IMG/VR virus record: IMGVR_UViG_3300025372_000001
Origin: a virus
Lineage: Duplodnaviria; Caudoviricetes
Length of the DNA stretch: 64,000 bases
Reading direction: 5' to 3' (one strand)
Every line of letters begins with the position of its first letter. Position 1 is the first letter of the stretch. Both the position numbers and the translations under genes were made by a program. Below the pieces are notes generated by a model. It saw only the letters and a list, made by a program, of their open reading frames with translations. It made no database searches and was not told the DNA's origin. Positions 4,176 to 53,304 of this stretch are shown here, one piece after another.

Positions 4176-4484
4176 TTATTCTATTGTTTTTGGTTGAGCT
4201 ACATTAAACCTGTTATTATCAACAATATCAATACCTAATTGTTCCCAGCATTGTACATCTACAATATCAGGCCCAAATATTGCATCAAATGATACTGAGA
4301 CAGCTTCCTCATGAAGGAATTTAAAATCATCTAATCCGTCAAATATCCTTAAATTTCCTTTATAAGGAATATCTCTTACAATTTCGATACAATATCTATC
4401 ATCTAGTATATTTCCGTCTATTACATTTTCTCCACGTTGTACCGGTCCTTTATCAGTTATATCAAATTTACAAATTGGTTTCAT
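4176..4484 (-). CDS. Hypothetical protein
   Basis: 102-aa ORF in operon-like packing. Confidence 0.65.
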   Translation of the reverse strand: MKPICKFDITDKGPVQRGENVIDGNILDDRYCIEIVRDIPYKGNLRIFDGLDDFKFLHEEAVSVSFDAIFGPDIVDVQCWEQLGIDIVDNNRFNVAQPKTIE

Positions 4485-4488
4485 AATT

Positions 4489-6240
4489 TTATTCTACTAT
4501 TCTCGTAAGACCCCTTTCTTTCTCTAATCTAATTACATTCCCATCCGAAATCATAATATTATTCGGATTGTGTGTGATAATATAATATGCCTCATTGTTC
4601 TGTTCACTCATTATTTTCAACAATTCCATAATTTCTTCTGCTGCTTTTGAATCAATGGACGAATCAAACAATTCATCAAACACAGAAATATTAACTGTCA
4701 CATTACTTTGTAATCTTCTAATATCTCTAAAAGTAAACAACATGGAAAAACAAACTCGTCCCTTTTCTCCATCAGATAATCTATCATAAGATATAGTCTT
4801 TCCTTTCGGATTAACCACAGTTTCTTCGAAAAATTCATCAAAGGTAATACTACAAGGCGTATTCAATCTCTTCAAATAGAAATTCAATCTCTCATTAATT
4901 GTATCCAATATCTTACTAGTAATAAATGCCTTTACTCCTGTCGGAGAAAAAGTAATCTTAACTCCTTCCAATATTGCTACTTCTTTTTTTAACTCTTGGA
5001 ACACTGTTCGTCTTGCTTCCAAATAAGTCTTATCATTTGTAACCTTTTCCAAAAACGGATTAACTGATGATTCGATTCTTGCTCGTTCCTTAATAGTTGC
5101 TAAAATTCGATCTTGCGACTTATGATAAACATCTTGCTTTTCTTGTGTCCTTTTCTTCTTTTCTTCTAATGCCTTAAATTCCTTTTCAGTTAAATTATAA
5201 CGTTGTTGAAGAGTATCATAAACATTAACCAATTGAGTAATTTTATTATTTAATTCCTTGATAACTTCTTGAATTTGTTTCTTTTCATCATCGAAGGAAT
5301 GAGTATCATTGTTATCAAAAGAACGTTTACAAGTAGGACAAAAAGTAGGTTTATCTTCTAATTTCTTTAGCTTACTTGTTTCGTTTCTTAATTCGGTTGA
5401 TACTTCTGCTTTTCTGACAGATGCTCGTTGTTTCTTTTCAGTTATATTAGTTAATGATGCTTTCTTTAATTCTAAATCTCTATCCAGTTGTCTTAATTCT
5501 TCGGTTAAGTCAATAGGATGAACTTGTTTCAATTCATTCAATAATTTATCATAATCAAGAAGTGCCTGTTCTTTGCGTTTCTCATGGCTTTCTGCATATG
5601 CTTCATCTTTCTCGATGGACTTTACTAACTCTTGTATTCGAGCCTCTTCTTTGCCCATTTCTGTGCATTTAAGAGCATGTTCATCTTTTGCATCCTTGGC
5701 AAGTTTACTAAACACTTCTAATCCTAGAATACCTTCAATAAATTTAGTTTTTAAAGATTTCTCTTGAGAAAGGAATGCAGAAGATTCTTTACTAGTCATT
5801 ACTAAAGTATTAGTGAATACTTCTTTAGTAATTCCTAGATCATTGAGAATGTCTTTAGTTGTTTCAGGTTTAGTTTTGGTTTTATCTTCTCTAGTACCAT
5901 CAGGATGAACAACGAATCTGGTTAATTCATCGGGGGAAAGAGAACGCATGATTTCATAGTTGATCCCGTTAACTGAATACCAACATTCAACGATACATGC
6001 ATCTTTGGCATGATCATTTTTGATTTCTTTTTGATTGATATTTCGATAGGTTTTACCGAATAGAACGAAAGAGAGCGGTTCAACGATTAGAGAAGTTTTT
6101 CCGACTCCGTTAAAAGAATTATCGTCTTTGTTGAAACCGGTGATGAAGTTGATGCCTTCTTGAAAGATTAATTCAGTTGGTTCATTTCCATATGAGAGGA
6201 AATTTCTAATTCGTATTTTTTCAAATATTACTTTTTTCAT
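4489..6240 (-). CDS. 46: Recombination endonuclease ATPase subunit (T4 gp46 / SbcC / Rad50)
   Basis: IRNFLSYG, Walker A NGVGKTS, coiled coil with CPTC zinc hook, LSDGEK signature, Walker B VFDELFD, IITHN. Confidence 0.95.
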   Translation of the reverse strand: MKKVIFEKIRIRNFLSYGNEPTELIFQEGINFITGFNKDDNSFNGVGKTSLIVEPLSFVLFGKTYRNINQKEIKNDHAKDACIVECWYSVNGINYEIMRSLSPDELTRFVVHPDGTREDKTKTKPETTKDILNDLGITKEVFTNTLVMTSKESSAFLSQEKSLKTKFIEGILGLEVFSKLAKDAKDEHALKCTEMGKEEARIQELVKSIEKDEAYAESHEKRKEQALLDYDKLLNELKQVHPIDLTEELRQLDRDLELKKASLTNITEKKQRASVRKAEVSTELRNETSKLKKLEDKPTFCPTCKRSFDNNDTHSFDDEKKQIQEVIKELNNKITQLVNVYDTLQQRYNLTEKEFKALEEKKKRTQEKQDVYHKSQDRILATIKERARIESSVNPFLEKVTNDKTYLEARRTVFQELKKEVAILEGVKITFSPTGVKAFITSKILDTINERLNFYLKRLNTPCSITFDEFFEETVVNPKGKTISYDRLSDGEKGRVCFSMLFTFRDIRRLQSNVTVNISVFDELFDSSIDSKAAEEIMELLKIMSEQNNEAYYIITHNPNNIMISDGNVIRLEKERGLTRIVE

Positions 6241-6441
6241 TTAAATGTGCTTAAACATTGAACATTTTTCTTGTCCTAAATCTTCATTATCAATAACAAT
6301 GATATTCATTCCAACTTGGAAAGCATTATAATTGTAATAAAGGCATTTCCTGAAATCAGGAGAATCAAAGAACATACCTTTCTTTGTAGTAGGTAATTTA
6401 CTACATTTTCCTTCGTCTGACATAAAAATACATTTATTCAT
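6241..6441 (-). CDS. Small Cys-containing hypothetical protein
   Basis: 66-aa ORF abutting gp46. Confidence 0.55.
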   Translation of the reverse strand: MNKCIFMSDEGKCSKLPTTKKGMFFDSPDFRKCLYYNYNAFQVGMNIIVIDNEDLGQEKCSMFKHI

Positions 6442-6444
6442 AAT

Positions 6445-6744
6445 TTATTCTAATATATAGCAATCTTCATCACCTGTTGCATCTTTGGGACAAATTTCTG
6501 GTTTACAAGAAAGAAAAGTCCGAAGTTCTTCTTTAGTGGAGAATTTAAAAGTGTTCCAACCATCAAATCGAGATTGAATAGCTAATATTGCTTCCTCTGA
6601 ACAATAACCATTTAATAATGCAGCGGTGCAAGGGCCGCTATACTTATAGTGTTCCGAATCTACAGGAAATAAAATTAAAGAATGTAGTAAACACTGCTCA
6701 AAGTTTTCTTGATTTTCTAATATTTGATCTAAGGTATATTTCAT
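6445..6744 (-). CDS. Hypothetical protein
   Basis: 99-aa ORF, ATGA overlap with upstream gene. Confidence 0.6.
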   Translation of the reverse strand: MKYTLDQILENQENFEQCLLHSLILFPVDSEHYKYSGPCTAALLNGYCSEEAILAIQSRFDGWNTFKFSTKEELRTFLSCKPEICPKDATGDEDCYILE

Positions 6745-7751
6745 TGTTTAAAACTTAAAATTAATTCATTCACTTTCTCTTGTGACATATCCGCATATTC
6801 TTGTTTGGTATGAAGTTTACGTAATTCACCCATGACTCTTCCTACTTCTTTACCATCACTAATATTGATAAGTTCCATGACTTTATAACCATTAACCTTT
6901 TCTTTAAAGGCTTTATCAAAAAGATAGCGAACTTTATTCTTTTTGATAGATTCTTTTAAAATAGGAAAACGTTCCGCCCATTCACAAATATAATATTCGC
7001 GTCGTTGAAAAACGTGTCGATTATATTTCCATGAATTCTTTTCAAGCCATTCTACGAAACCCTTGTAAACGATTCTCTTAGAATTTCTCACGCGATTTAC
7101 GTGGTTAAGATTTTCAAATTTGAAGATTTCAGGATCAAAATATTTTGAACTAGCTACCCAATGATATACTTCTTCATTGGTATCAAATCCATTTTTCCAA
7201 TGTTCATAATCGAATCCTAATAAGGGAAGAATAACTGAAAAGTCCTTTGTAAGAATGACCTTTTCCATAATATTATCATTATCTAAGAAGTTTAATTTAC
7301 TTTCAAAGAAACTCTGACGAATCCAATAAGATAAACCCGTGTGTCCTAGATGAACATCCATCTTGTGAGCAATCCTACCTTGAAACATGCCAACGTCGCC
7401 CCAACTAGTATAATCAATAGAAGATTGATAATCCTTCATTGGAACAAAGGTTAAATCTACTTGAAATCCTGCAATAGGAAATGAAATAACATTGGAATTT
7501 ACATGAACCTCCATTTGAAGATATTCTTCTAGTGTACGTCGAGTATCCAGAGAACCATCCATTCCAACAATAATATCTAAGTCTCCGGGAGATTCTTTTA
7601 GTCGAATTGACGGAGCAACACCTAATTTCCAAGTAGAAGGAAATACTTCTTTCATATCACGAAGAATATTATCTTTAAAGATATGATATTCTTCGTTAGA
7701 AAGTCGCTTTTCTGGCAAATCCCAGATTGATTGAATTAGTTTTCCACCCAT
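6741..7751 (-). CDS. Pol-beta-superfamily nucleotidyltransferase (phage type); start revised to MGGK at 7751
   Basis: MGG start typical of this phage family, KESPGDLDIIV and FQVDL acidic motifs; promoter 8 nt upstream of ATG 7751. Confidence 0.75.
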   Translation of the reverse strand: MGGKLIQSIWDLPEKRLSNEEYHIFKDNILRDMKEVFPSTWKLGVAPSIRLKESPGDLDIIVGMDGSLDTRRTLEEYLQMEVHVNSNVISFPIAGFQVDLTFVPMKDYQSSIDYTSWGDVGMFQGRIAHKMDVHLGHTGLSYWIRQSFFESKLNFLDNDNIMEKVILTKDFSVILPLLGFDYEHWKNGFDTNEEVYHWVASSKYFDPEIFKFENLNHVNRVRNSKRIVYKGFVEWLEKNSWKYNRHVFQRREYYICEWAERFPILKESIKKNKVRYLFDKAFKEKVNGYKVMELINISDGKEVGRVMGELRKLHTKQEYADMSQEKVNELILSFKQ

Positions 7752-7788
7752 GATTCCATATACTAACACATGGAATCTATATAGGCAA
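7752..7788 (-). promoter_or_regulatory. Sigma70-like promoter TTGCCT-N17-TAGTAT (extended -10) embedded in an 8-bp hairpin abutting the start codon
   Basis: -35 at 7783-7788, -10 at 7760-7765; GATTCCAT/ATGGAATC arms at 7752-7759 and 7770-7777. Confidence 0.6.
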
Positions 7789-7792
7789 ATTA

Positions 7793-7999
7793 TTAACTAA
7801 GAGTTGCCTTAATTACTTCCAATTGTTTAGCAGAAATTTCCCCCTTAATAAATTTTTCGATATTTTCTCGAAGAATATCTGCTTTAGTAATTTCTTTAGG
7901 AGCAGGGGGGGCAACAGGTTGAGGAGTAGGTCCGAAATTGCCGCGAATTGGATCAGGATAGTTGGATACACCAAAGGTGCTAGAGGTTGTCATGGACAT
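7793..7999 (-). CDS. Small Pro-rich hypothetical protein
   Basis: 68 aa; TAAATA (8009-8014) 9 nt upstream. Confidence 0.65.
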   Translation of the reverse strand: MSMTTSSTFGVSNYPDPIRGNFGPTPQPVAPPAPKEITKADILRENIEKFIKGEISAKQLEVIKATLS

Positions 8000-8020
8000 A
8001 GATGGAGGTATTTATTTCCA

Positions 8021-8749
8021 TCAGATATAACTATCAATTCCTCTGTGCCAAATTCCGTCGTCTCTTCTTTCAATTATTCCTTGCTCAATATGAACCAATT
8101 CTCCTACTCGTTCCCCATTAACCCTCAATAAACAAGTCTTTAAACAATCTAATGTTTCTACTTCTATTCCATGATAATTAACCAGAAACATTAGGAATCT
8201 TTCATAGAAAGAATTTCCGCCCATTCTAATATAATATGGCAATAGATCGTATCCATCAGCAATCAAATCCATATTCGTTGAATTAGTAATATAAAATCTA
8301 TCACATAGTCCGTGCCAATCATCATGGTTCAATGTCCATATTTTTTGGAAATCAAATTCTTCAATATTATCAGGTAAAGCAGTATCTTCTAAGAGAAGTA
8401 AATCGGGTCGAACACGAACAACAATATCATATTTAAAATTATGGGCTTCTTCGTATCTTTGTTTTATTTTATTACATTGTTGTAAGCAATACAATTGTCG
8501 AAACATTCCTTGAGTAGCATGTTCATTGACTAAATCAAGATTAAGGTCTTTTCTCGTTTCGGAATGAAATTTTATAACATGATCATTTACTCCTAAAAAG
8601 GTGTTCATTTTATCAATATGGGGGTCATCTTGCCAGAAAAAGATAAAAATATCATAATCCTTAAATTTAGAGAGTATATTCTTCTCTAATAGATGAAACG
8701 TTTTATCGAGGGAACGAAATTCACCGGAAAAACAAATAGCAGTTCTCAT
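8021..8749 (-). CDS. Putative glycosyltransferase-like protein of viral glyco-islands
   Basis: AICFSGEFR and YDIVVRVRPDL (DxxxRxRxD) motifs, DRFY. Confidence 0.6.
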   Translation of the reverse strand: MRTAICFSGEFRSLDKTFHLLEKNILSKFKDYDIFIFFWQDDPHIDKMNTFLGVNDHVIKFHSETRKDLNLDLVNEHATQGMFRQLYCLQQCNKIKQRYEEAHNFKYDIVVRVRPDLLLLEDTALPDNIEEFDFQKIWTLNHDDWHGLCDRFYITNSTNMDLIADGYDLLPYYIRMGGNSFYERFLMFLVNYHGIEVETLDCLKTCLLRVNGERVGELVHIEQGIIERRDDGIWHRGIDSYI

Positions 8750-9717
8750 TATAAACTATCAAGGAATACTGATTTAAATTTCTTCATCACTTCATTAGGA
8801 GTAAATGCTTTATAGGCATTCCAATCTCTATAAGTCCATTCCTTATTAAATGAGGATAATATCTGATAAACTTCTTCTTTATTAGAATAATAAATTCCTT
8901 TATCTTTCAGGGTAAAGATATGATTTCTTTCAGGACTATTAGCATAAGTGATAACTGGTTTATTGCATAAAGAAAATTCTGCACATGCTGCTCCGAAACT
9001 TTCTCCTACATGTCTAGCATGAATCATTGCATCACAAGTATTAATGAACTTCCTTTTAACGGTTAAATCCGCAAAAGGATGGGTATGAATGATTCGAGGA
9101 TGATTGAAGAATTGAGGAGTTTGAGCAAAAAGAAAGTAAACATCATCTCGTTCAGATAAGATTTTAACTATTGCTTCATTTACGAAATGAATATCCCAGC
9201 CATAATGTCCGCCCATTCTACCAAACACAATTGCATCACGAGGAATACCAATTTGTTCTCTAAAGTCTTCTTGAGTGTCTGGTAAATGAACACAATAAGG
9301 AACAAAAGGATGCTCTCCTTTAGAGCAATGAATGCTTGACCATTCAGAAACATATGCATATACTTTTCCATGAGGTTCGTTGTTCATTCCTACTACATGA
9401 ACAAACATGGGAACATTATTGACCCATCTTCCTTCATTGATTTTACCGTTTTTTTGAAGATAACAAGCGGCAGCATTATGTTGAGTAATTGCATCCTCAA
9501 GAGCAGGCATATTTTGTGTTCCCGGTAATGCAACTAATTCAATATTATGTTGTTTGAATTTCTCAATTACTAAAGGACTGTTATAGGAATTAACTTCATC
9601 ATAAATCATCACAGATTTATTTCCAAGAATGGATTGATTGAAGTGACAATAATCGAAGTAGGAAACTCCTGTTCCTTGGAGGTCCATATGAGGTTGATAA
9701 AATGCTAAAGTGCTCAC
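8749..9717 (-). CDS. GT-B/GT4-like glycosyltransferase
   Basis: CDAMIHARHVGESFGAACAEFSLCNKPVIT motif. Confidence 0.85.
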   Translation of the reverse strand: MSTLAFYQPHMDLQGTGVSYFDYCHFNQSILGNKSVMIYDEVNSYNSPLVIEKFKQHNIELVALPGTQNMPALEDAITQHNAAACYLQKNGKINEGRWVNNVPMFVHVVGMNNEPHGKVYAYVSEWSSIHCSKGEHPFVPYCVHLPDTQEDFREQIGIPRDAIVFGRMGGHYGWDIHFVNEAIVKILSERDDVYFLFAQTPQFFNHPRIIHTHPFADLTVKRKFINTCDAMIHARHVGESFGAACAEFSLCNKPVITYANSPERNHIFTLKDKGIYYSNKEEVYQILSSFNKEWTYRDWNAYKAFTPNEVMKKFKSVFLDSL

Positions 9718-51850: not shown

Positions 51851-52528
51851 ATGAGAATTGGAATTGTCGGAACACAAAGCAACGGAAAAACCACATTAGT
51901 TCAAGCCATTAAACAAATTTGGCCTAACTATAAAGTAATCGAAGGAAAATATCGTCAATATGTCACCGAACACCGTGACGAATTAAATCAAAACGGAACA
52001 CTTGAAACTCAAAAGAAATTACGTGATTTTCTTTGTGATGATGCCATTGATAACTCTTCTGAAAAATATACAGTAACAGATCGAACCATTCTAGATAATG
52101 TAGTTTATACTCTTTGGTTAGGCGGAAAAGATAAGTTAACTGATGATGAATTTATTTCCACTTCGATTAATATTTGTCGAGAAACTATTAAGATGTATGA
52201 TCTTATTCTTTGGCTTCCTTTAAATGAAGATATTCTATTGACAGAGGAAAAGGTTAATCGGGATTTAGATGCAACATATCGAGAAGAGATTGATTATATT
52301 TTTCAAGCAGTATATGATGGATATTTGAAGCATGATGGTATTTTATTTGATGTAAACGATCAACCGCCAATGATTCCATTGATGGGGGATTTATCAGAAA
52401 AGATTGCTACATTGAAAGAATATATTGATGAAAACGGGGATTCGATTGTGACAGAGCAATCCGTGTTAGCAGGATTGGAAGATATTTACGATAAAGCTGC
52501 ATTATTTAAACAATTAAGTGGAAAGTAG
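51851..52528 (+). CDS. P-loop nucleoside/nucleotide kinase (AAA_28/dNMP-kinase-like)
   Basis: GTQSNGKTTL, DRTILD, YDLI; TATAAATA (51836-51843) 7 nt upstream. Confidence 0.8.
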   Translation: MRIGIVGTQSNGKTTLVQAIKQIWPNYKVIEGKYRQYVTEHRDELNQNGTLETQKKLRDFLCDDAIDNSSEKYTVTDRTILDNVVYTLWLGGKDKLTDDEFISTSINICRETIKMYDLILWLPLNEDILLTEEKVNRDLDATYREEIDYIFQAVYDGYLKHDGILFDVNDQPPMIPLMGDLSEKIATLKEYIDENGDSIVTEQSVLAGLEDIYDKAALFKQLSGK

Positions 52529-52567
52529 TTGAATGAGACATAACATCAATGGTAAATAATTGGTGTT

Positions 52568-52768
52568 ATGCAATTTCTAAATCCTGCTCAATCCCGTGTC
52601 CTATTATGCTGCCGTGCCGGTTCATGCCCCATTGTTGAACGTGTAGATGATAAAGAGTTTACCATTACTGATGATTATAATGGTAAAGTCCGAATCACTC
52701 ACGAAGAAATGGGTATTCTGAAACGAACCATTGAACACTTTGAATCCAAAGGTGAACTGTCAGTTTAA
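52568..52768 (+). CDS. Small Cys-containing protein
   Basis: LLCCRAGSCP; TAAATA 9 nt upstream. Confidence 0.65.
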   Translation: MQFLNPAQSRVLLCCRAGSCPIVERVDDKEFTITDDYNGKVRITHEEMGILKRTIEHFESKGELSV

Positions 52769-52795
52769 AATAAATTAAAATAAAGATTAAATCAA

Positions 52796-52841
52796 AGCCG
52801 CCCCGCCTCTTCAAGAATGCGTAATTGGGCGGCTCTTTTTT
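52796..52841 (+). terminator. GC-rich stem with internal hairpin and U-tract (module 1; terminator and/or sRNA 3' end)
   Basis: GCCGCCC-CGC-CTCTTCAAGAAT-GCG-TAATT-GGGCGGC-TCTTTTTT. Confidence 0.8.
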
Positions 52842-52842
52842 G

Positions 52843-52931
52843 TTGATTTTAGTATCATTCTGTGGTAAATAATACTTAACAATACCCCCGACGGCTCTTC
52901 ATATCCGCACCACCGGGGGTTACTCTTTTTT
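52843..52931 (+). ncRNA. Candidate ~55-nt small RNA gene (module 2) with its own promoter and terminator
   Basis: TTGATT-N17-TAAATA (52843-52871), then CCCCCG-A-CGG-CTCTTCATAT-CCG-CACCAC-CGGGGG-TTACTCTTTTTT; no ORF. Confidence 0.55.
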
Positions 52932-52932
52932 G

Positions 52933-52960
52933 TTGACAGATGATTGTTTTGGGTTAAAGT
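52933..52960 (+). promoter_or_regulatory. Sigma70-like promoter TTGACA-N16-TAAAGT fused to the preceding U-tract
   Basis: -10 ends 5 nt before ATG 52966. Confidence 0.65.
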
Positions 52961-52965
52961 GGAGT

Positions 52966-53304
52966 ATGGAAACGCTCACAAGAAAACAGGCAATCAATAT
53001 TTTACGTTCAAATAAATGGAAATATTGTGGGTGTGAAACCGTATCACAAGATGATATTTGGTCGATTTTTTATGATGGTGTTCTAGTCGAACCCACTTTA
53101 TATTTTAAGTATAAAGGGGTATCAGTAGGAGATTTCCGGTTAAAAACGACAGGTTGGTTTATTTTTAAGAAACTTGCTCCCGACGATGAATTATATATTG
53201 AATATTTAGCGGTTCTAACTGAAATTGAACAGGAAAAAGACGATCAACGAATTGCCAAGAGGAATCAAATGCTAAAAGAAATCGAACAAACTTATTTTAG
53301 ATAA
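52966..53304 (+). CDS. Hypothetical protein; start revised to METLTRK at 52966
   Basis: The track's upstream TTG start falls within the promoter. Confidence 0.65.
   Translation: METLTRKQAINILRSNKWKYCGCETVSQDDIWSIFYDGVLVEPTLYFKYKGVSVGDFRLKTTGWFIFKKLAPDDELYIEYLAVLTEIEQEKDDQRIAKRNQMLKEIEQTYFR

Follow-up and report, generated by a model that had tools for sequence, protein, structure and literature searches.

Toxin-less abiF-type RNA hairpins in terminator-promoter cassettes of a freshwater phage as candidate decoy antitoxins

Introduction

Are two small hairpins that stand next to each other between two phage genes duplicated transcription terminators, or are they conserved RNAs in their own right? 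This question is raised by the IMG/VR virus record IMGVR_UViG_3300025372_000001 (Duplodnaviria; Caudoviricetes), of which a stretch of 64,000 nucleotides (nt), hereafter the window, was analysed. Two plus-strand hairpins of the same uncommon shape, unit 1 (52797-52834) and unit 2 (52885-52920), lie between two open reading frames (ORFs), ORF66 and ORF115. The initial annotation of this locus described them as tandem modules of ~90 bp and suggested selection on RNA structure beyond termination, with RNA decoys or antisense regulators as candidate functions. That interpretation is partly supported by the analyses described here, which lead us to regard the following reading as probable: unit 1 belongs to the abiF RNA family but is carried by a phage and lacks the toxin, unit 2 is orthologous to another hairpin of this kind in sister phages, and both would serve as decoy antitoxins made early in infection.

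The abiF RNA (Rfam family RF03085, also AbiFr or RCd22; gathering cut-off, 37 bits) lies upstream of abiF/Abi_2 genes, whose product AbiF is a HEPN RNase toxin (bioRxiv 10.1101/2025.04.15.648962; PMC12737573; PMC13064643; PMC12165695). The RNA, called RCd22 in C. difficile, neutralises AbiF in cis and in trans via tight direct binding, and its single-stranded bulge nucleotides block the active site of the toxin (bioRxiv 10.1101/2025.04.15.648962; PMC12737573; PMC13064643). RNA and toxin are classed together as a type III toxin-antitoxin and abortive-infection system, which is seen as ancestral to Cas13 (PMC12737573; PMC13064643; PMC12165695). AbiFr is known from the AbiF of Prevotellaceae (PDB 8VZ6, as cited in PMC12737573), and RCd22 of C. 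difficile has two such motifs (bioRxiv 10.1101/2025.04.15.648962). An unrelated hairpin from the sk1 phage cos site is also reported to inhibit AbiF (reviewed in PMC13064643).

Results

Two hairpins with the shape of abiF RNA

Unit 1, an abiF-type (AbiFr-like) hairpin at 52797-52834 of the plus strand, reads GCCGCC-C-CGC-CUCUUCAAGAAU-GCG-UAAUUG-GGCGGC. Its outer stem of 6-7 bp, GCCGCC(C)/(G)GGCGGC, is formed by the arms 52797-52803 and 52827-52833, the inner stem CGC/GCG closes a 12-nt loop starting at 52807 (CTCTTCAAGAAT in the DNA), and the 3' bulge TAATT(G) is followed by TCTTTTTTG. Unit 2, a diverged abiF-shaped hairpin at 52885-52920 of the same strand, reads CCCCCG-A-CGG-CUCUUCAUAU-CCG-CACCAC-CGGGGG. 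Here the outer stem CCCCCG/CGGGGG (arms 52885-52890 and 52914-52919) carries a 5' bulge A, the inner stem CGG/CCG closes a 10-nt loop starting at 52895 (CTCTTCATAT in the DNA), with TTACTCTTTTTTG after the 3' bulge CACCAC. The window has only two copies of the 14-mer CTCTTTTTTGTTGA (52833-52846 and 52923-52936), one behind each hairpin, and both lead into a -35-like TTGA.

The folding energies calculated by RNAfold were -18.8 kcal/mol for unit 1 (z -3.1; equalled by none of 200 shuffles) and -14.8 kcal/mol for unit 2 (z -2.6; equalled by 3 of 200). A shape scan of both strands of the 64 kb, for a 6-bp stem, a 0-1-nt bulge, a 3-bp GC-rich stem, a CTCT loop of 10-12 nt, and a 3' bulge of 4-7 nt, found units 1 and 2 as the only sites. 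Shuffled windows contained 0.27 such sites on average, and thus a second site less than 100 nt away on the same strand is very unlikely to have arisen by chance. The sequence, the folding z-scores, and the scan together confirm the earlier description of two units with different stems, the same architecture, and an identical 14-base tail.

This architecture, in both the 12-nt loop form of unit 1 and the 10-nt loop form of unit 2, is that of abiF RNA. The family is ~37 nt long, and in its consensus the outer stem has 6 bp, the 5' bulge 1 nt, the inner stem 3 bp, the loop 11 nt (CUCUCAACGAU; CUCUyAAyrAU), and the 3' bulge 6 nt, often with a U-tract behind. The conserved unpaired nucleotides of the family, a CUCU..A..AU loop and an A-rich 3' bulge, are present in unit 1 (loop CUCUUCAAGAAU and bulge UAAUUG). 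They are present in part in unit 2, where CUCUU.A.AU is kept and the bulge is CACCAC.

The abiF RNA family in phages

Unit 1 aligned with the full RF03085 model at 26.1 bits (E 0.017 in a 501-nt search). Scans of the whole window for tRNAs and for Rfam families at their gathering thresholds returned nothing, and the family identity emerged only once relatives had been gathered, via homologues (identity from 96% to 58%) of the AAA_28 protein encoded at 51851-52528. The positional orthologues of unit 1 in two relatives exceeded the cut-off (L018, 42.3 bits; L014, 40.3 bits), as did hairpins in the unrelated viral contigs L025, L026, L028, L030, L032, and L033 (38.8-42.7 bits). Unannotated sequence of the T4-like Acinetobacter phage Acj61 scored 58 bits. 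Lower scores were obtained with contig L024 (32.5 bits), the Streptococcus prophage Javan132 (30 bits), and hairpin A of L020, a sister phage described below (27.2 bits). A model of the hairpin only, R2, was built on 12 sequences including unit 1, and the score of unit 1 against it, 57.5 bits, is therefore by construction.

A search of IMG/VR with the core pattern CCGCCTCT, 4-8 nt, ATGCGTAATTG found ten further contigs with the hairpin, with GC contents of 0.34 to 0.61, and the core CCGCCUCU-N5-6-AUGCGUAAUUG is present in 12 IMG/VR contigs. The hairpin core occurs in at least six unrelated phage lineages. The outer stems of the unrelated copies differ and still pair (e.g., CCUCCC/GGGAGG in L025). 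Unit 1 is 87-95% identical to the copies in relatives and unrelated phages (87-90% for the unrelated phages), and the ORF adjoining it is only 54% identical even among sister phages. Staphylococcus phage Stau2 carries an unannotated stand-alone unit (NC_030933.1 near 118985; L039 ~2450-2545) in which a TTGACA-17-TATATT promoter precedes a hairpin whose outer stem is AU-rich and whose core is that of abiF (CGCCUCUUAACAAUGCG), with a U-tract behind. A blast search with the 20-nt core of this unit matched 36 Staphylococcus, 30 Bacillus, and 12 Enterococcus phage records.

The hairpins of L024 and L027 lie after or between tRNA genes and are devoid of a U-tract. Directly before the hairpin of L024, ARAGORN predicted, at 997-1095, a tRNA-like gene of 99 nt whose anticodon has 4 bases (gctg) and to which Rfam gave a weak score resembling transfer-messenger RNA. 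In L027, over 20 tRNA genes are present in the region 5383-8791, together with a gene for a SegE-like GIY-YIG endonuclease, and the hairpin lies between tRNA-His and tRNA-Thr. The 58-bit RNA of Acj61 (L038 2502-2560) is followed by UUUUG and then by TATAAATA, the late-promoter box of T4; it lies downstream of a tRNA cluster, flanked by a hypothetical gene on one side and a GIY-YIG homing endonuclease gene on the other.

The 3' bulge differs by lineage (UAAUUG, CAAAUU, AAACAC, ACCAGC, and CACCAC). The freshwater-phage subtype has the inner stem CGC/GCG and the bulge UAAUUG, in place of AGC/GCU and CAAAUC, and the Acj61 hairpin is the bacterial-type version (AGC/GCU, CAAAUU).

In an alignment of the 12 phage copies, 100% of the stem cells pair and five of the nine pairs change on both sides. 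The covariation score was 0.43 versus 0.11 in shuffles, none of the 500 shuffles scoring as high, and in slid controls of the alignment 31-57% of the cells pair. The G-U pairs fit the transcribed strand only, and each copy is co-oriented with its neighbouring genes; both observations show that the structure is read on that strand, as RNA. The complete pairing, the five covarying pairs, and the copies without U-tract among tRNA genes bear out the suggestion of selection on RNA structure beyond termination. The loop start CTCTTCA, to which the initial annotation drew attention, is indeed present in the window at 52807 and 52895, but across the relatives the kept motif is CUCU...A..AU, and positions 5-8 vary. 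CTCTTCA and its complement occur 11 times in the window versus 9.7 expected, a chance frequency that gives no support to an antisense or seed reading, and nothing was found in support of an anti-CRISPR repeat or a tRNA-loop mimic.

The exact hairpin-plus-tail pattern was not found in IMG/VR, blastn of the region gave no match among cultured phages, and neither R2 nor R1, a model that included the flanks, found a further copy in the 64-kb window or the 20-kb loci of the relatives. Four core matches in the genome collection (L034-L037), without the stem and in coding-like sequence, were rejected as chance matches, as were five of the seven loci found with the pattern CCCCCGNCGNCTCTTCAT, which lie in GC-rich DNA. 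The DNA sequencing runs containing the region are freshwater metagenomes, and their contigs over the region showed no joints and no variants. Two DNA runs from the same lake samples (X1 and X2) also contain a 48-nt hairpin copy, with six differences from 52794-52841, in unrelated GC-rich flanks. These flanks are similar to viral contigs of the L028-L033 group, and patterns made from them found nothing in the viral or genome collections.

Absence of a toxin gene

No Abi_2 (PF07751) toxin gene was found among the ORFs flanking the window copies or any other phage copy, or, in a PADLOC scan, among 39 further ORFs of the window. A tblastn search with bacterial AbiF against the window and the relatives returned nothing (best E, 0.33). 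PF07751 was also absent from ten carrier records, among them three complete genomes (Acj61, Stau2, and Javan132) and a contig of 212 kb rated as complete; the search did match in the control genomes. The bacterial control L041 showed the canonical layout, in which an Abi_2 gene (E 3.6e-57) follows the hairpin and UUUUUU at a distance of 15 nt. Another bacterial hairpin, L042 (35.4 bits, sub-threshold; CACCC bulge), has no Abi_2 neighbour and was not used as evidence for a subtype resembling unit 2.

Because no Abi_2 gene accompanies the phage copies, we regard the phage element as a member of the RNA family and not as a complete AbiF system. It differs from the known abiF RNA loci in that no abiF/Abi_2 gene follows and in that it closes a phage operon and is fused to a promoter; the loop of unit 1, moreover, is 12 nt long. 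Among the functions listed in the initial annotation, that of an antitoxin mimic is thus favoured by family membership: the hairpin appears to be an abiF/AbiFr type III antitoxin RNA with no toxin gene alongside.

Origin of unit 2

Hairpin A of L020 is the positional orthologue of unit 2, with 88% identity over 164 columns. Common to both are the upstream -10 region, the flanks ATACCCCCG and CGGGGGT, the motif TTGACAGATGA, and the start of ORF115. Compared with hairpin A, the 5' bulge of unit 2 has changed from C to A, one loop base has been lost, the third inner pair has undergone a compensatory change from C-G to G-C, and the 3' bulge UAAUUG has been replaced with CACCAC. The published structure has the bulge in contact with the active site of the toxin, and this wholesale exchange therefore fits retargeting, but it may equally reflect decay. 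The shape of abiF RNA survives in unit 2, but the Rfam and R2 signal has gone and the inner stem does not belong to the minimum-free-energy fold. Unit 2 is hence called a diverged derivative of an abiF hairpin and not a demonstrated family member. The model with flanks, R1, was uninformative for unit 2 because the plain terminator-promoter of L016 scored as high.

The locus in related phages

The gene order is the same in all relatives: VWA, AAA_28, a 63-66-aa ORF, the intergenic element, variable genes, and PhoH on the opposite strand. At the intergenic site, L014 and L018 (75% and 71% amino acid identity in AAA_28, respectively) have the same complex hairpin, and L013 (73%) and L016 (58%) have an ordinary terminator fused to TTGACA. 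In the sister phages L019-L023 (96%), hairpin A lies behind an inserted minus-strand ORF of 325 aa, and L020 and L021 have a second hairpin, B, behind a DUF1501 gene. The DUF1501 gene of L020 (3098-4357) is bracketed by two abiF-type hairpin-promoter cassettes (2318-2354 and 4373-4410). In L019 and L022, the DUF1501 module is missing and hairpin A is joined to the gene after B, with the junction inside TTGACAGATGA, which looks like a cassette-mediated deletion or insertion. The presence of the 325-aa ORF cassette, the DUF1501 cassette, and ORF115 varies among phages with 96% identical AAA_28, and the junctions fall at the cassettes. The hairpin-promoter cassettes therefore mark the boundaries of insertions and deletions. 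The tandem ~90-bp arrangement itself is not a kept feature, since the sister phages have hairpins 2 kb apart or just one.

The 325-aa ORF (L020 1268-2245, minus strand; also in L019 and L021-L023, and absent from the window) sits between the 63-66-aa ORF and hairpin A and has its own promoter and an AT-rich bidirectional terminator. Searches against Pfam and PADLOC found no convincing family for it (only weak DUF2726 and PDC-M38B matches), and ruled it out as an Abi_2 gene beside hairpin A. In L018, a sub-threshold Rfam match to the cyanobacterial small RNA (sRNA) PsrR1 was found near a terminator (6375-6449; 35.8 bits, cut-off 42) and is probably a terminator resemblance.

Terminators, promoters, and flanking genes

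ORF66 (52568-52768, plus strand) is the last gene of the upstream early operon, and a homologous ORF of 63-66 aa precedes the hairpin or terminator in all relatives. Unit 1 would form the 3' end of the transcript of this operon. It has the features of an intrinsic terminator, namely a GC-rich stem with UCUUUUUU immediately 3', and the U-tract UCUUUUUUG lies at 52834-52842 (plus strand). Unit 2 has these features only in part: the U run, within the U-rich tail UUACUCUUUUUUG (52920-52932, plus strand) that has the 14-mer in common with the tail of unit 1, starts 6 nt past the stem, and termination there is therefore probably weaker. A terminator scan missed both hairpins because its loop limit was 3-8 nt.

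A promoter between the units is plausible. The promoter-like site for unit 2 (52843-52871, plus strand) consists of a -35 box TTGATT, a 17-nt spacer, and an extended -10 box TGgTAAATA, and the orthologous hairpin of L020 has an equal geometry upstream (TTGTTC, 17 nt, TAAATA, within TATAAATA). The proposal that unit 2 has its own promoter and no ORF thus stands for the ORF, none being listed within the unit, and is qualified for the promoter, since a consensus promoter scan did not list the site. The 11-mer TGGTAAATAAT, which resembles an extended -10 box, occurs exactly twice in the window, before ORF66 (52550-52560) and before unit 2 (52863-52873); the copy before ORF66 may not be a working promoter, because almost no leader would remain. 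Behind unit 2, a further promoter-like site (TTGACA, 16 nt, TAAAGT; 52933-52960, plus strand) was listed by the consensus scan with 10 of 12 positions and would serve the variable genes downstream. The motif TTGACAGATGA is common to all cassette copies of the sister phages. The variable cassette gene ORF115 (52957-53304, plus strand) follows; it is absent in L019 and L022, where the hairpin-promoter cassette abuts the next gene. Pfam, PHROG, and PADLOC searches assigned neither ORF66 nor ORF115 to a family.

The window has a GC content of ~32% and encodes PhoH, a head-closure protein, Dda-like and other helicases, and SbcC-like proteins. A cluster for RNA repair and anti-defence (RNA ligase, kinase, 2H, NADAR, and phosphoesterases) lies 2 kb upstream of the hairpins in the window and in the relatives, a context in keeping with a decoy function.

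Discussion

The reading that we consider probable would work as follows. Both hairpins would be transcribed early in infection, unit 1 as the stable 3' end of the transcript of the operon that closes with ORF66, and unit 2 as an RNA of ~55 nt made from its own promoter or by read-through. Once the labile antitoxin of the host runs out, these RNAs would occupy AbiF, should the host carry it, and keep it inhibited, so that abortive infection would not follow. In this clade, the hairpins would double as intrinsic terminators fused to the next promoter, and the repeated terminator-promoter cassettes mark the points at which neighbouring genes are acquired and lost. The same logic has a precedent in pseudo-ToxI of the lytic phage PhiTE, a toxin-less RNA antitoxin mimic that defeats the type III defence ToxIN (PMC3475682). 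The PhiTE case differs in that the RNA belongs to another family, the toxin ToxN is not a HEPN RNase, and the evidence is genetic, whereas ours comes from sequence comparison. Racrs, or RNA anti-CRISPRs, are similar in that the RNA partner belonging to a defence nuclease occurs in phages as a solitary copy and acts as a decoy, in that case against Cas proteins (PMC10651486). The hairpin studied here is not a CRISPR repeat and has no Cas protein, but abiF RNA is related to the repeat of CRISPR RNA insofar as AbiF is the proposed ancestor of Cas13 (PMC12737573).

Several observations weigh against decoy antitoxins. Unit 1 itself is below the 37-bit cut-off of RF03085. Unit 2 gave no RF03085 match at E<=10, its R2 score of 12.6 bits was not above that of the reverse complement of unit 1, and the abiF-like inner stem costs it 2.4 kcal/mol relative to the minimum-free-energy fold. 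The 3-bp inner stem that the initial annotation saw in both units is accordingly present in both sequences but is not the preferred fold of unit 2, and the covariance model search that it had suggested placed the orthologues of unit 1 above the cut-off and left unit 2 unrecognised by Rfam or R2. The phage-type core (CGC/GCG, UAAUUG) was not found at any real locus in 185,579 representative bacterial and archaeal genomes, which thus yielded no host RNA as the template of a mimic. The ordinary terminators of L013 and L016 mean that termination alone can suffice at the site.

The phage-only subtype may have a different explanation, which we offer tentatively and think more doubtful than the decoy function itself. 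It may have evolved as a broad-spectrum RNA inhibitor of HEPN RNases of the AbiF/Cas13 lineage, carried by large lytic phages of very different hosts, and not as a copy of the antitoxin of any one host. Such an inhibitor would travel as a self-contained terminator-promoter or tRNA-array module and would perhaps be retargeted by a bulge swap, as between CACCAC and UAAUUG in phages whose neighbouring protein is 96% identical.

According to an explanation with a partner other than AbiF, which we think unlikely, the phage-type hairpin is a separate subfamily that binds another HEPN RNase (e.g., of the Cas13 lineage), an RNA-processing enzyme, or a phage protein; its role would be that of a sponge, processing signal, or stability element. 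The exact phage-type core, which was found in the 12 viral contigs but at no genuine bacterial locus, would fit a separate subfamily, as would the lineage-dependent bulge and the copies within tRNA arrays, where processing enzymes act. Yet the loop and the architecture are those of RF03085, whose sole known partner is AbiF, and Acj61 has the bacterial-type version at 58 bits, likewise without a toxin gene. The phage copies, moreover, have no neighbouring gene in common.

It also seems quite unlikely that the units are mere duplicated cassettes of the PeSL type, which would provide insulation and homology for gene shuffling, with the inner sequence kept by recent descent or gene conversion. PeSLs of T4-like phages are composites of a stem-loop terminator and a sigma-70-like promoter that occupy intergenic sites of a hypervariable region, at the boundaries of insertions, deletions, and replacements between close relatives (PMC2839356, PMC4122927). 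The sequence of our units corresponds to this composite, since each hairpin has a U-rich tail fused to a -35 box, TTGATT or TTGACA. The cassette copies that flank the DUF1501 module, with the junction inside TTGACAGATGA in the phages that lack it, and the plain terminators of L013 and L016 also agree with it. However, PeSLs consist of simple G/C runs and number ~50 per genome, whereas here two copies of a conserved structured RNA are present in 64 kb, with none more in the 20-kb flanks of the relatives. The hairpin matches a curated RNA family, unrelated phages over the GC range given above have the same loop, inner stem, and bulge, and the two copies among tRNA genes have no U-tract. The PeSL explanation accounts for the location of the hairpins but not for their identity.

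It is very improbable that the hairpins are the antitoxin half of an AbiF-like system of the phage itself, serving superinfection exclusion with a toxin encoded outside the window: the 64 kb are only a part of a large genome, and complete phage-encoded AbiF systems exist, as in the C. difficile phi027 prophage (bioRxiv 10.1101/2025.04.15.648962), but known systems place the RNA directly upstream of abiF, as in the control L041, and searches of three complete carrier genomes, the complete 212-kb contig, the window, and the loci of the relatives yielded no Abi_2 gene.

The abiF RNA family was already known, and its phage matches are recorded in Rfam. In the T4-like cyanophage S-CREM1, an RF03085 match of 51.6 bits was reported as an sRNA gene, with neither a toxin-less or decoy reading nor a comparative analysis (PMC9964418). 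A literature search found no proposal of toxin-less phage abiF RNAs as decoys; its coverage did not extend to a 2025 Cell paper on AbiF (PubMed 39970912), which may mention phage copies. This locus adds a hairpin fused with terminator-promoter cassettes at the boundaries of insertions and deletions, a phage-only sequence subtype that phages of very different kinds have in common, and an exchange of the bulge from one orthologue to the other.

As an abortive-infection RNase, AbiF is widespread, and it has been proposed as the ancestor of Cas13; the way in which phages escape it is largely unexplained. Toxin-less copies of its RNA antitoxin are found in T4-like, jumbo, and Staphylococcus phages. 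If these copies are decoys, they would be the second natural case of RNA antitoxin mimicry as a counter-defence after pseudo-ToxI of PhiTE, and a far more widespread one. They would also represent compact natural RNA inhibitors of HEPN RNases, and would mean that a counter-defence RNA can be built into the ordinary terminator-promoter cassettes with which phages shuffle their genes.

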